Source: an uncultured Candidatus Saccharibacteria bacterium
Lineage (GTDB): Bacteria > Patescibacteriota > Dojkabacteria > J137
Length of the DNA: 45,620 nucleotides
Assembly (NCBI GenBank): GCA_964650085.1
Contig: CAZYSE010000003.1
Coordinates: forward strand, 1,743-47,362
Reading direction: 5' to 3'
Part shown: positions 16,061-33,939 of the stretch, piece by piece
Position numbering within the stretch: the stretch's first letter is position 1
Layout of the letters: each line of letters opens with the position of its first letter
Program-made: the position numbers and the translations under genes
Notes under the pieces: generated by a model
What the model was told of the DNA's origin: nothing
Seen by the model: the letters and a program-made list of their open reading frames with translations, nothing else
Databases searched by the model: none

Positions 16061-16135
16061 TGAGTAGTAGCTCAATGGTTGAGCAAGCCGCTGTTAACGG
16101 CAAGGTTGTAGGTTCGAGTCCTACCTACTCAGCCA
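16061..16135 (+). tRNA. tRNA-Asn (anticodon GUU), CCA encoded
   Basis: Hand-folded cloverleaf. Acceptor tgagtag/ctactca; D arm gctc-aatggtt-gagc; anticodon arm agccg-ctGTTaa-cggca; variable loop aggtt; T arm gtagg-ttcgagt-cctac; discriminator g followed by cca. Confidence 0.9.
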
Positions 16136-24580: not shown

Positions 24581-25474
24581 ATGCAAGAATCAAAAGACCA
24601 AAAGCTCAGTATCCCTAGCCCACAGCTCATCTCCATTCAAGGAAACATCGGCTCTTTTTCTCACATCGCGGCAACAAATTTATTTGGATCAGGAATTCAA
24701 CTTTTAGAACGTGATTCCTTTAAAGAAGTGTTTGATGATCTAAAAAACGATCGTTGTGAATCCATTGTCATACCTATAGAAAATTCAACTTATGGATCGA
24801 TATTCCAGAACTATGACTTGCTAGGATCAAACGATTTCGAAATATATAAAGAAGTGTATCTAAAAATCAAATTTCATTTAATTGGGTTACCTGCTAGTAG
24901 TTTTGAAGATATTGTAGAACTACATTCGCATCCAGTTGGACTTGGGCAAATTTCAAAATTCCTAGAAGAAAACAGACAGATAAAGGCAATAGAGTTTCCT
25001 GATACTGCAGGTGCAGTAAAAATGGTAAAAGAAACTAACGATTTAACCAAAGCTGCTGTAGCCAGTAAATTTGCTTCAAATATTTACGGAATGCAGATAC
25101 TAAAGGAAGATATTCACGAAAACCAAAACAATTACACAAGATTCTTTGCACTAAGGAAACGAAAAAATATTGAACAGCTCACTGCCCAAAGCCCAAAGCT
25201 GGCAAAAGCAAAAACTACAATCAAATTTCAGTTGGGAGAAGAATCAGGTAGTTTGTATAAATGTATTGGTGCTTTTGCAAAAAGAGATCTTGCATTGGTT
25301 AAAATAGAAAGTCGCCCAATTATAAATACGCACTGGGAATTCACATTCTACTTGGACATCAAAGCAGATTTGAATGGAATAGAAATGCAAGAAGCAATTG
25401 AAGAAATGAAACTATACTCTAAAGATTTTAGCGTTCTGGGATGTTATGATAAAGGAGTATACATTGATACGTAA
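24581..25474 (+). CDS. pheA: prephenate dehydratase (PDT domain + ACT domain)
   Basis: PDT-like GNIGSFSHIAA...ENSTYGSI...NYTRFFAL is followed by an ACT domain with SGSLYKCIGAFAKRDLALVKIESRP. It starts 2 nt after the previous stop. Confidence 0.8.
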   Translation: MQESKDQKLSIPSPQLISIQGNIGSFSHIAATNLFGSGIQLLERDSFKEVFDDLKNDRCESIVIPIENSTYGSIFQNYDLLGSNDFEIYKEVYLKIKFHLIGLPASSFEDIVELHSHPVGLGQISKFLEENRQIKAIEFPDTAGAVKMVKETNDLTKAAVASKFASNIYGMQILKEDIHENQNNYTRFFALRKRKNIEQLTAQSPKLAKAKTTIKFQLGEESGSLYKCIGAFAKRDLALVKIESRPIINTHWEFTFYLDIKADLNGIEMQEAIEEMKLYSKDFSVLGCYDKGVYIDT

Positions 25475-30654: not shown

Positions 30655-33600
30655 ATGAACCGATACACACCTAAAGACATCGAAAATAAATGGATCGAAA
30701 AGTGGTCAAATGATCATCTTTATAAAACAAAGAAAACTGAAGACAAAGATAAGTTCTATTCACTGTATTCATTCCCTTACCCAAGCGGAGATGGCTTACA
30801 TGTAGGACATGCTGAGGGAATGGTTGCTAATGATATAGCAGCTAGGTTTAATAGAATGAAAGGAAAAAACGTTTTAATTCCAATGGGTTGGGATTCTTTT
30901 GGATTGCCAGCAGAGAACTTTGCAATTAAAACAGGTGTACCTCCACAAGAAAGTACTGAAAAAGCTATAAAAAGCTTCATTGATCAAATTAAAAGACTAG
31001 GAATTTCTGTTGATTGGGATTTAGAGCTTGGAGCACATAGACCTGATTATTATAAATGGACTCAATGGATCTTCTTGCAGATGTACAAAAAAGGTATAGC
31101 CTATAAGAAGAATGCCCCTGTAAATTGGTGCCCTAAAGATCAAACAGTTCTAGCCAATGAACAAGTTATTGATGGAAGATGCGAGCGATGCGATTCACTT
31201 GTAGAAAAGAAAGACATGAACCAATGGTTCTTCAAAATCACTGATTATGCAGAAAGACTTGTTAAAGATTTAGATAAAGTAGACTGGCCAGAAAGTACAA
31301 AAGCTGTTCAAAGACATTGGATTGGTCAGAGTGAAGGGACGAATGTTAAATTCCAAATCGCAAATTTTAAAGAATTGCATGATAAATCCATTCAACTTGA
31401 TCCAAGTATCGAAATTAGAATGGCAACTACAGCGGATGCTGCAGGTATTGGATTTGTTCGTGCGATGGGTTGGAGAGATAACAACACATCAACATCTACA
31501 GGAGTGGATATAGATTTTCTTGAAAGAGTAATGGGTTTCACCATTCCACTTTCTGAAGATACAATTGAAGTAACTAGAAAGTATATTGCAAAGAATCCCT
31601 CATGCCACATTGTTGCTCAAAAAGATGATCTGATTGTTGGATGGATTGGTTTGACCTTTGAAGAAGATGGCAAAATTTCATTTGGTGTATACACACATCC
31701 TGATTATAGGGGACAAGGCATAGGCAAAGCCTTAATGGAACATGTATTTCAAAAATATCCAAATGTTGCTTTCAAAATTGACGTAACAGAAACAAACACT
31801 AAGGCTATCGACCTTTACAAAAAGCTAGGATTTAATATAACAGGTAAATCTAAATGGCTAAAAGCTGAATTTCCAGAAAAATTCTTACCATTGGTCGACA
31901 TGGAAAGAACCCCGTTTGTTGAAGTATTTACAACACGAATCGATACTATTTTCGGGTGTACTTTCCTTGTTGTAGCTCCGGAACATTCGATAATAAAAAA
32001 TCTAAAATCAGAGATTTCCAATCTTGAAGAAGTTGAATCTTATGTTGAGGCAGCTAAAAATAAGACAGATTTGGAACGTCAAAGCCAAAAGGAGAAATCA
32101 GGAGTCGAAATCAAAGGAATCAAGGCTGTAAATCCTTTCAACAATGAAGAAATTCCGATTTTTGTAGCAGACTATGTTCTAAACACTTATGGTACAGGAG
32201 CTATTATGGCTGTTCCTGCTCATGACGAAAGGGATGGGGAGTTTGCTAGAAAATATAATATTCCAATCAAAATCACAATTTCAGAAAACTTTGAGGGAAG
32301 TAGTTTTCCAAGTGGTCAGACGTACTATGTTATTCCAAAGAAAAGCCTTACTAGTATAGAAACTTTGAAAAATGAAATAGAGCATATAGAAGTTTTCGAA
32401 AAAGATTCTAATGTTTACGTAAGACTAACAGCGGATGAGGATATTATAAAATCATTCCAGAACAATCTCACCAACTCACTAAGCGGAGTTCAGGATGAGA
32501 TGTTAATCTTGTACAACAACAAATTTGTTCAGCTAACACCTGAACAATTTAAAGCTGCAGTAGCAAATGAGATTCAAGAGCTACCAGAGCAAACACATAG
32601 TTTTCTTACTAATGAAGATACAAAAATCTGGGAATTAATTGAACCTTTCAAAGATCGTATTTTTACAACAAACCCAGGAGTAGTAATTAACTACGGAGAT
32701 TACTTTAGATTATCTACAGCAGATGCGACTGAAAAAATGCAATCATGGCTTGAAGAAAAAGGTTTAGGATTTAAGAAAACAACTTTCAGATTGCGTGACT
32801 GGTTACTTTCTAGGCAAAGATATTGGGGTTGCCCAATTCCAGTTGTCTACGATCCTGAAGGAAATCCACATCCGATGGATGAGAAAGACTTGCCTTTGGT
32901 ACTTCCAACAGATGTTGATTTTAAACCAACAGGCGAATCACCAATTAAAAGTTCGGAATCATTCAAAAAATTAGCAGAAGAAAAATACGGAAAAGGTTGG
33001 TACTTCGAAGCAGACACTATGGATACATTTGTAGATTCAAGTTGGTACTTTATGCGTTACGCAGACAATGGGAACAACGAAGAAATTTTCACAAAAGAAA
33101 ACGTTAACTACTGGAATCCAGCAGATCTATACATGATTGGAGCAGAACACACAGTTCTTCACTTAATGTATGCCAGATTCTTTACAAAATTTTTATTTGA
33201 CGAAGGTTACATTGGCTTTGATGAACCATTCGCAAAACTAAGGCACATGGGAATAATTTCTGGACCAGACGGAAGAAAGATGAGCAAAAGATGGGGAAAT
33301 GTTATTAATCCAAACGACGAAGTTGATAAGTACAGTGCAGACACAGTCAGAATGTACGAAATGTTCATGGGCCCATTAGAGGAACCTAAACCATGGAATG
33401 ATAGCTCAGAAAGTGGTGTATTCAGATTCTTATCGAGAGTTTGGGATCTATCAGACAAAGTTGATTCGAAAACTCAATCACCAAAACAAGACTCTGAAGT
33501 AAATAAATTGATTGGAAAAATTGATAAAGATACACAGAACCTGGCTTTCAACACAGCGGTTGCTAAGTTTATGGAATTTGTAAACTTTGCAGCTAAAGAA

Positions 33601-33939
33601 ACTAGCTTATCTAAATCGGTATTTGAAACTTTTTTAAAGTTACTTGCACCATATGCACCATTCATAACAGCAGAGCTTTGGTCTAAATTAGGTAACTATG
33701 AATCCATACACCTGCAGTCATGGCCTTTGGTTGATGAAAGTAAATTTTTAAACGAAAACGTTAATCTTGCAGTTCAATTTAATGGAAAGAGCAGGGGACT
33801 AGTTTCTGTAAATCCAGATACTACTGAAGAAGAGGTGATGGCGTTAGTTAGAGCGGATGAGAAACTTGCAAAATACATTACTGGAGAGCCTAAAAAGGTA
33901 ATATTCGTTAAAGGGAAGATCATAAACATTGTTCTTTAA
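30655..33939 (+). CDS. leuS: leucyl-tRNA synthetase with two large in-frame insertions (GNAT domain and an unknown module)
   Basis: Class I motifs HVGH (HIGH) and KMSKR (KMSKS) are present. Editing-domain motifs TTRIDTIFG and AVPAHDERD, plus RLRDWLLSRQRYWG, confirm LeuRS. At 1094 aa it is much longer than typical bacterial LeuRS, which I recall as roughly 800-880 aa. Confidence 0.9.
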   Translation: MNRYTPKDIENKWIEKWSNDHLYKTKKTEDKDKFYSLYSFPYPSGDGLHVGHAEGMVANDIAARFNRMKGKNVLIPMGWDSFGLPAENFAIKTGVPPQESTEKAIKSFIDQIKRLGISVDWDLELGAHRPDYYKWTQWIFLQMYKKGIAYKKNAPVNWCPKDQTVLANEQVIDGRCERCDSLVEKKDMNQWFFKITDYAERLVKDLDKVDWPESTKAVQRHWIGQSEGTNVKFQIANFKELHDKSIQLDPSIEIRMATTADAAGIGFVRAMGWRDNNTSTSTGVDIDFLERVMGFTIPLSEDTIEVTRKYIAKNPSCHIVAQKDDLIVGWIGLTFEEDGKISFGVYTHPDYRGQGIGKALMEHVFQKYPNVAFKIDVTETNTKAIDLYKKLGFNITGKSKWLKAEFPEKFLPLVDMERTPFVEVFTTRIDTIFGCTFLVVAPEHSIIKNLKSEISNLEEVESYVEAAKNKTDLERQSQKEKSGVEIKGIKAVNPFNNEEIPIFVADYVLNTYGTGAIMAVPAHDERDGEFARKYNIPIKITISENFEGSSFPSGQTYYVIPKKSLTSIETLKNEIEHIEVFEKDSNVYVRLTADEDIIKSFQNNLTNSLSGVQDEMLILYNNKFVQLTPEQFKAAVANEIQELPEQTHSFLTNEDTKIWELIEPFKDRIFTTNPGVVINYGDYFRLSTADATEKMQSWLEEKGLGFKKTTFRLRDWLLSRQRYWGCPIPVVYDPEGNPHPMDEKDLPLVLPTDVDFKPTGESPIKSSESFKKLAEEKYGKGWYFEADTMDTFVDSSWYFMRYADNGNNEEIFTKENVNYWNPADLYMIGAEHTVLHLMYARFFTKFLFDEGYIGFDEPFAKLRHMGIISGPDGRKMSKRWGNVINPNDEVDKYSADTVRMYEMFMGPLEEPKPWNDSSESGVFRFLSRVWDLSDKVDSKTQSPKQDSEVNKLIGKIDKDTQNLAFNTAVAKFMEFVNFAAKETSLSKSVFETFLKLLAPYAPFITAELWSKLGNYESIHLQSWPLVDESKFLNENVNLAVQFNGKSRGLVSVNPDTTEEEVMALVRADEKLAKYITGEPKKVIFVKGKIINIVL

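Follow-up and report, generated by a model that had tools for sequence, protein, structure and literature searches.

The stretch of DNA analysed here (the window) comprises 45,620 nucleotides of contig CAZYSE010000003.1, from the genome assembly of an uncultured Candidatus Saccharibacteria bacterium (GenBank GCA_964650085.1) that the GTDB places among the Dojkabacteria. It carries leuS, the gene for leucyl-tRNA synthetase (LeuRS), and within this gene, in frame, lies the coding sequence of a complete GNAT N-acetyltransferase (Table 1). The host protein scored 899.7 bits against the equivalog model for bacterial LeuRS (TIGR00396 leuS_bact, cutoff 548.4) and belongs to that family. Both signatures of the synthetic site and both editing motifs were located in the open reading frame (ORF), together with RLRDW (residues 712-716) and RQRYWG (residues 720-725). 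In a 70-sequence alignment (A2) the KMSKR signature is invariant, as are G51 of HVGH and the editing residues T427, T431, D524 and D527, while H49, V50 and H52 are nearly so. Pfam assigned residues 12-224 to tRNA-synt_1, residues 301-393 to Acetyltransf_1 and residues 421-556 to the LeuRS editing domain. An AlphaFold2 (AF2) model of the full-length protein reached a predicted local distance difference test score (pLDDT) of 86.2 and a predicted template modelling score (pTM) of 0.72, and superposing its LeuRS body on solved structures of bacterial LeuRSs gave template modelling (TM) scores, normalised to the target, of 0.78-0.84. Judged by its motifs, the LeuRS around the insert is an intact and fully equipped bacterial synthetase. 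The initial annotation of this DNA had described an uninterrupted ORF with all of these landmarks, and every motif it quoted was found in place.

The excised insert matched Acetyltransf_1 (PF00583) with an E-value of 1.3e-18 (67.8 bits; gathering cutoff 20.7), placing it in the GNAT superfamily; within the whole protein the same match gave 1.6e-17 (64.2 bits). Acetyltransf_7 and Acetyltransf_10 likewise exceeded their cutoffs on the excised segment. An AF2 model of the GNAT, made with an alignment of nested and free-standing copies, reached pLDDT 92.2 and pTM 0.85, and its elements follow the canonical GNAT order (beta1-alpha1-alpha2-beta2-4-alpha3-beta5-alpha4-beta6-7). Foldseek matched it to solved GNATs with probability 1.00, TM scores of 0.6-0.7 and E-values of 1e-10. 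Free-standing GNATs of 171-174 residues (P0131-P0133) align end to end with residues 251-418, so the insert amounts to an entire small gene preceded by a linker of 15 residues and followed by a junction of two. The linker has no counterpart in the free-standing homologs, which start at beta-1, and its modelled pLDDT is 64-77, falling below 50 at residues 241-243. At the other end, the GNAT strand 406-418 almost directly joins the CP1 strand 421-426 (pLDDT 86-93). These results agree with the original call of a complete GNAT in frame inside an intact synthetase. The start proposed for the domain, residue 251, is also retained, whereas the proposed end near residue 405 was too early because the fold reaches about residue 418.

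The predicted acetyl-CoA-binding loop, R352-GQGIG357, is invariant in A3 and A5, the alignments of LeuRS-embedded GNATs with their close relatives (R117, G118, G120 and G122 in A3 numbering), and differs by one substitution in some of the clade members aligned in A4. The tyrosine of LYKKLGF (Y388), invariant in A3, A4 and A5, aligns with Tyr117 of Escherichia coli YjaB (2kcw), a residue whose replacement by alanine or phenylalanine abolishes acetyltransferase activity (PMC6199490). The position equivalent to the general base E103 of RimI varies among members (D, E, G, Q or T). The alpha1-alpha2 region contains a motif specific to this clade, GW.DNN....TG.T.E[FY]L, whose G, W and G are invariant and whose N and T are nearly so across nested and free-standing members. 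This motif and the C-terminal LP...M strand are equally conserved in nested and free-standing copies and presumably line the acceptor site, as such elements do in related acetyltransferases. The window GNAT is acidic (isoelectric point 5.9), and the isoelectric points of eight of the nine nested GNATs lie between 5.0 and 6.9.

Table 1. Positions in the window of leuS, its inserts and motifs, and two features outside the gene
Feature	Position	Strand	Residues	Remarks
tRNA-Asn (GTT)	16061-16135			
Prephenate dehydratase gene	24581-25474			PF00800, E 3e-54
leuS ORF, host of the insertion	30655..33939	+		1094 aa, stop codon included, uninterrupted
HVGH (HIGH) signature	30799..30810	+	49-52	synthetic site
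Insert, whole	31360-31911		236-419	
N-terminal linker of insert	31360..31404	+	236-250	ANFKELHDKSIQLDP, flexible
Complete GNAT N-acetyltransferase domain	31405..31908	+	251-418	beta1 SIEIRMA to last strand LPLVDM
GWRDNN	31468..31485	+		start of alpha1-alpha2 motif, presumed acceptor-site wall
R352-G-Q-G-I-G357	31708..31725	+	352-357	acetyl-CoA pyrophosphate-binding motif (R/Q-x-x-G-x-G/A), predicted from sequence
LYKKLGF	31813..31833	+		contains candidate catalytic Y388
C-terminal junction T419-P420	31909..31914	+	419-420	last GNAT strand to CP1 strand, two residues
Remainder of CP1 editing domain	31915..32322	+	421-556	PF13603, profile positions 22-154
TTRIDT editing motif	31930-31947	+	426-431	
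AHDERD editing motif	32218-32235	+	522-527	
Second, orphan insertion (hot spot B)	32287..32724	+	~545-690	~118 aa extra relative to P0012
KMSKR (KMSKS) signature	33277..33291	+	875-879	

The first beta-hairpin of CP1 carries the insert at its tip, 6-10 residues upstream of TTRIDT. In the window LeuRS the match to the Pfam editing-domain profile begins at profile position 22, and positions 1-21 (WIGxSEG...) precede the insert, which therefore falls between about 21 and 22; intact relatives match from position 1. Because these 21 positions of the editing model come before the insert, the GNAT lies inside the first CP1 hairpin and not in the ribbon leading to CP1, as had initially been proposed; the proposed adjacency to the T-rich editing motif holds. 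The nesting thus has three levels, a GNAT inside CP1 inside a Rossmann fold. A syntenic contig from another study (L001; ENA ERZ23795167), 82-85% identical to the window in nucleotide sequence, aligns up to window position 31366 and resumes at 31919, with 12 nucleotides (...KFQISNSKSQIEIFTTRIDT...) where the window has 552. By this comparison the window LeuRS carries about 184 extra residues, close to the first estimate of about 185. The LeuRSs of Thermus thermophilus and E. coli have only a short hairpin loop at this site (FPVEGKEVRIPVFTTRPDT and FNVNDYDNTLTVYTTRPDT), in line with the few residues expected there.

A query with the insert and its flanks had suggested that the window protein was a singleton among LeuRSs, a view overturned by full-length and exhaustive searches. 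In public data, a homologous GNAT occupies the same site in at least nine clusters of LeuRS. Besides the window protein (P0010, NCBI), the full-length search recovered seven clusters, formed at 90% identity, of LeuRSs with Acetyltransf_1 (P0013, P0019, P0020, P0021, P0039, P0044 and P0045). In a search of 1.8 billion representatives the top three matches were LeuRSs (P0020, E 8.5e-47; P0130, E 1.9e-37; P0021, E 7.5e-28), and all free-standing GNATs ranked below them. One of these proteins, P0019 (MCA9387057.1/A0A955RM68), is annotated just "leucine--tRNA ligase [Candidatus Dojkabacteria bacterium]", and its contig was the only one returned when GTDB genomes were scanned with a profile of A5.

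This recurrence bears on whether the insertion might be an assembly or annotation artefact, in which a GNAT gene was joined chimerically into leuS. The contig is indeed derived from a metagenome; against an artefact, both junctions are in frame, the codon usage and GC content of the insert match those of the host gene, and the LeuRS-GNATs could be traced to four independent assemblies (SRR30545107, DRR350540, SRR31724217 and JAGQLF010000041), the rest coming from ENA, Logan and JGI. The presence of the same architecture in independent assemblies disposes of chimerism, and we give the artefact virtually no chance of being the explanation. A mobile element or recently acquired foreign DNA was also rejected. 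No flanking terminal repeats were detected at the insert (only repeats of 11-23 nucleotides at chance level), and GC content, GC at third codon positions and synonymous codon usage equal those of the rest of leuS, with a correlation of relative synonymous codon usage of 0.83 between insert and leuS, compared with 0.72 +/- 0.07 for control chunks. Finally, an intein was rejected because no Hint/intein family is among the Pfam hits of the window LeuRS and because the residues of an intein splice junction are absent, the insert beginning with ANFKE and ending with MERTP before FVEV. Together with the uninterrupted ORF, this bears out the initial reading that neither an intein nor a frameshift is present.

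The GNAT shows a presence/absence polymorphism among closely related synthetases. In a tree of trimmed LeuRS cores, proteins with a GNAT lie dispersed among plain LeuRSs. The nearest GNAT-less relative of each LeuRS-GNAT has 59-97% core identity (79-97% for six of the nine; 89% for the window protein with P0011, 93% for P0019 and 97% for P0039), and the nearest GNAT-bearing relative has at most 67%, the pair P0039/P0045 excepted. The nested GNATs are 38-53% identical to each other and are nearer to one another (E 1e-47 to 1e-28) than to any free-standing copy (<=1e-24). Because they are diverged and yet mutually closest, the insertion is old and patchily retained, and a recent single gain in the window lineage was rejected on the same grounds. 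Three proteins with 92-97% core identity, P0039 (GNAT), P0045 (GNAT and NUDIX) and P0098 (NUDIX only), have mosaic segmental identities, and the boundary of the GNAT block is clean. As the simplest reading, these data suggest an ancient insertion allele that homologous recombination in the conserved flanks has removed or exchanged time and again. In the pair P0039/P0045 (synonymous divergence, dS, ~0.23) the ratio of nonsynonymous to synonymous divergence (dN/dS) was 0.154 for the GNAT and 0.10-0.165 for segments of the LeuRS core, and by this estimate the embedded GNAT is under purifying selection.

Members of the same GNAT clade are found outside LeuRS. They occur as free-standing proteins in other bacteria of the candidate phyla radiation (CPR), one cluster being named N-acetyltransferase of Candidatus Woesebacteria, and they are nested in a valyl-tRNA synthetase (ValRS; P0181, 1252 aa), in which a possible HAD-like segment was seen by eye after the GNAT, and in a homoaconitase/3-isopropylmalate-dehydratase-like protein of the aconitase family (P0199, 1041 aa) that additionally has N-terminal NUDIX and Acetyltransf_3 domains. 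The GNATs of both these proteins share the alpha1-alpha2 motif with the LeuRS-nested and free copies. No conserved gene neighbourhood was found around the free-standing homologs of L006-L008, which therefore offer no functional clue. In GCA_040384045.1 a free-standing GNAT of the clade (L006 5001-5528) is encoded 3.5 kb downstream of a NUDIX-bearing LeuRS (L006 1-1475).

To place the GNAT among other insertions, 120 relatives were aligned to a plain LeuRS of 796 residues (P0012), with domains taken from precomputed and re-run Pfam searches. Insertions concentrate at four hot spots (P0012 residues ~233-243, ~355-383, ~434-447 and ~513-521) and include six or more enzyme families. Site A, the GNAT hairpin, holds a GNAT, a Ham1/ITPase domain (P0087, P0091), a GNAT and a Ser_hydrolase in tandem (P0130) or unknown pieces of 46-72 residues. 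Site B, after AHDERD, holds NUDIX, a methyltransferase (P0127) or a common 126-residue domain of no known family. An alpha/beta-hydrolase is found at site C, after RQRYWGxPIP, and a nucleotidyltransferase (PF14907/PF10706) at site D, before the ...LYMIGAEH segment. All four sites are filled in P0073 (1400 aa), and the combination of inserts varies between near-identical LeuRS alleles. On these alignments, the Dojkabacteria-type LeuRS has four permissive loops that accept optional small enzymes, and the mosaic identities suggest that cassettes are gained and lost by recombination between alleles.

The window LeuRS has a second insert, an orphan of about 118 residues at site B. It has no Pfam match, its AF2 pLDDT is 46-72, and it could not be aligned with, and has no detectable similarity to, the common 126-residue site-B domain (P0011). 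In the leuS of L001 the site-B domain contains an in-frame TAG and an in-frame TGA six codons apart (L001 5992-5994 and 6010-6012), and the gene is therefore called as two ORFs of 370 and 471 residues; the stops could mean that this LeuRS is split, that the insert is decaying or that the contig, with 4.8x coverage, contains errors. The alpha/beta split LeuRS of Aquifex aeolicus illustrates that the LeuRS body tolerates interruption near CP1. The insertion of a whole ORF and the break of L001 leuS at hot spot B would be compatible with an origin by splitting, capture and refusion. By chance, another CPR synthetase with a nested enzyme was found, a predicted PheRS beta subunit with an NlpC/P60 peptidase domain between B3_4 and B5 (L008 9417-10525). 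In the P0039/P0098 lineage the gene directly downstream of leuS (L002 5981-6622, L004 5951-6595) has a faint-to-weak match to ATE_C and could encode a tRNA-dependent transferase with the aminoacyl-tRNA-protein transferase fold.

The neighbours of leuS in the window are RadA, two unassigned ORFs, a RibD_C protein and RecX, and a GatA-type amidase and a class II synthetase are also present; this is a plain housekeeping neighbourhood. Adjoining the GatA-type amidase is a gene for prephenate dehydratase, an enzyme of amino-acid biosynthesis that is somewhat unexpected in a CPR genome. The tRNA-Asn gene is the sole RNA gene found in the window.

Comparison with characterized acetyltransferases placed the window GNAT near several groups. 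RimI was its best-scoring NCBIfam family (TIGR01575, 48.6-51.3 bits) at a score below the equivalog cutoff of 86.4, so it is not assigned to RimI itself; PRK10514 and PRK10562 followed. By sequence the closest solved protein was E. coli YjaB (2kcw, E 1.7e-9), then RimI, while the profile of the clade matched N-terminal acetyltransferases best (6wqb, E 6e-20, then 7wx5, Ard1 4pv6, RimI 9mto and Naa50). RimI, Ard1 (Naa10), Naa50, YjaB and YiaC share with the window GNAT the cofactor motif and the catalytic tyrosine, Y388 corresponding to YjaB Y117. What sets the window GNAT apart from that group is its place in a CPR clade of its own, marked by the GW.DNN...TG.T motif, and its nesting in another enzyme. 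YjaB, RimI and YiaC have been shown to be lysine acetyltransferases (PMC6199490). Among fold neighbours, many GNATs obtained similar Foldseek scores, including a RimI-like protein, PA4794, YncA, ArsN and phosphinothricin acetyltransferase. The top of the list (TM 0.6-0.7) includes the acetyltransferases of amino-acid analogues, namely phosphinothricin acetyltransferase, YncA/MddA and ArsN1, which stop the misuse of a free amino acid by acetylating its alpha-amino group; against the ArsN1a NCBIfam model the window GNAT scored 33 bits, far under the cutoff of 170.

The initial annotation had pointed to the GNAT toxins TacT, AtaT and ItaT, which acetylate aminoacyl-tRNA (PMC7367177, PMC7595197), as precedents for an action on Leu-tRNA. 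They have the GNAT fold in common with the insert, and N-alpha-acetylation of an aminoacyl group is chemistry that a GNAT tethered to LeuRS could perform. None of them was present among the PDB sequence matches with E<=0.01, the best 60 profile matches or the top 50 Foldseek matches, and no antitoxin gene lies next to leuS, within which the GNAT domain is internal. With the acidity of the domain, these results led us to reject a TacT/AtaT-type toxin, and the proposed toxin-like action on Leu-tRNA received no specific support.

A class Ia synthetase with a GNAT in one chain of about 1100 residues has a counterpart in the curated NCBIfam model NF040702 (ileS_w_GNAT). That model describes an isoleucyl-tRNA synthetase (IleRS), not a LeuRS, and the window protein reached only 77.6 bits against its cutoff of 1999, through the shared class I core, and so falls outside this family. 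No paper on the NF040702 IleRS-GNAT was found, and neither a LeuRS-GNAT nor the insertion of enzymes at several sites of CPR synthetases was described in any text located by full-text literature searches. The statement that a LeuRS-GNAT fusion is undescribed accordingly stands for the literature; uniqueness does not, given the clusters in public data and the IleRS-GNAT model. The accessory domains that individual lineages have added to aminoacyl-tRNA synthetases are for the most part terminal, and most are binding modules without catalytic activity. Unlike these known appendages, the inserts of Dojkabacteria-type LeuRS are whole small enzymes nested within loops of the chain; one protein can hold as many as four, and close alleles differ in them. 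Synthetases with accessory domains are known in kind; a LeuRS with four slots carrying swappable enzymes is apparently undescribed.

The explanation we favour, on which our own judgement is evenly divided, is that the insert is an optional, active N-alpha-acetyltransferase cassette of RimI/NAT-like type with its own acceptor specificity, and that LeuRS is its carrier. LeuRS would charge and proofread tRNA-Leu as normal. The tethered GNAT would bind acetyl-CoA through R352-GQGIG357 and, with Y388 as general acid, acetylate an amino group, in the most likely case that at the alpha position of an amino acid or a peptide. Selecting this acceptor would fall to the conserved alpha1-alpha2 loop of the GNAT itself, and from LeuRS the domain would gain its expression, its stability and a place at the translation machinery. 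The data show the insertion, its fold and motifs, the selection on it, its presence/absence polymorphism and its distribution; we infer that the enzyme is active, which type of acceptor it uses and that it acts independently of LeuRS chemistry. Since the acceptor motif is identical in free-standing, ValRS-nested and aconitase-family-nested copies, specificity probably lies in the GNAT; and since near-identical LeuRS alleles lack it, the module is optional and probably has an acceptor specificity of its own. Several observations weigh against such a neutral carrier and speak for coupled quality control, in which the GNAT would work with LeuRS chemistry by N-alpha-acetylating species that pass the adjacent editing site. 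These could be edited-off norvaline, isoleucine or homocysteine, inhibitors of the aminoacyl-adenylate type, or (mis)charged tRNA-Leu, and they would be removed permanently from the activation and editing cycle. The hosts of the clade, LeuRS, ValRS and the LeuC-like dehydratase, all handle branched-chain amino acids, which hints at a substrate link. The position a few residues upstream of T426, T427 and T431 and the two-residue C-terminal junction, predicted by the model to be rigid, are what would be expected if position mattered. The fold neighbours YncA/MddA, ArsN and phosphinothricin acetyltransferase N-acetylate free amino-acid analogues. The other LeuRS inserts (NUDIX, Ham1, the esterase-type hydrolase and the nucleotidyltransferase) are 'house-cleaning' families acting on nucleotides or esters, classes of compound that LeuRS handles. 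GNATs acting on aminoacyl-tRNA are established through TacT, AtaT and ItaT, and the GNATs MccE and RimL acetylate aminoacyl-nucleotide antibiotics. We regard coupling as the main rival, though as the less likely reading: the GNAT is missing from LeuRS alleles with 89-97% core identity, free-standing copies keep the same acceptor-loop motif, the domain is acidic and lacks similarity to the aminoacyl-tRNA-acetylating toxins in the sequence, profile and fold matches examined above, and it would waste Leu-tRNA to acetylate it when correctly charged.

The lysine acetyltransferases among the relatives raise the further idea of a built-in regulator, a protein lysine acetyltransferase that would modify LeuRS itself or neighbouring translation factors according to the acetyl-CoA level and so tune charging to the energy state. 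YjaB as the closest solved sequence and RimI and PRK10562 among the top NCBIfam matches are consistent with this, and lysine acetylation regulates the activity of E. coli LeuRS. We consider it improbable, as no target lysine was identified, the GNAT is optional between near-identical alleles, free-standing and otherwise-nested copies have the same acceptor loop, and the similarity to lysine acetyltransferases lies mainly in the cofactor-binding motifs. Optionality in close relatives and the variable position equivalent to RimI E103 would suit a catalytically dead passenger, in which case a permissive loop tolerates the captured ORF or uses it as no more than a structural spacer. The dN/dS of 0.15, the same as in the LeuRS core, argues the other way, as do the confidently predicted fold and the invariance of R-x-x-G-x-G, the catalytic tyrosine and the acceptor-loop motif across members only 38-53% identical, and we hold a dead passenger to be very improbable. 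A wider proposal, on balance unlikely in our estimate, takes all the inserts together: LeuRS in Dojkabacteria and some neighbouring CPR would be a four-slot, on-enzyme damage-control hub for by-products and mis-substrates of aminoacylation. Its targets may include non-cognate amino acids, aminoacyl-adenylates or Ap4A, non-canonical nucleoside triphosphates, and aminoacyl esters or thiolactone. Next to the editing pocket, the GNAT may then N-acetylate editing rejects, or may use aminoacyl-CoA from the thiol site of the synthetase, class I synthetases including LeuRS having a thiol site able to aminoacylate CoA (Jakubowski, PMC5370406).

Few enzymes are as conserved as aminoacyl-tRNA synthetases, and triple-nested catalytic domains are unusual in them, the more so when near-identical alleles differ in having them. 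In automated annotation such nested enzymes disappear behind the name "leucine--tRNA ligase". Should the cassettes be independent passengers, as in the explanation we favour, ultra-small genomes would package accessory enzymes inside essential genes. If the cassettes are coupled to LeuRS chemistry, an editing domain would have acquired a new form of proofreading or detoxification, with a bearing on the control of mistranslation and on resistance to antibiotics that target LeuRS; a damage-control hub, if true, would add a new layer of translational quality control. Under either reading, passenger or coupled, the four permissive loops are naturally validated sites for LeuRS engineering.

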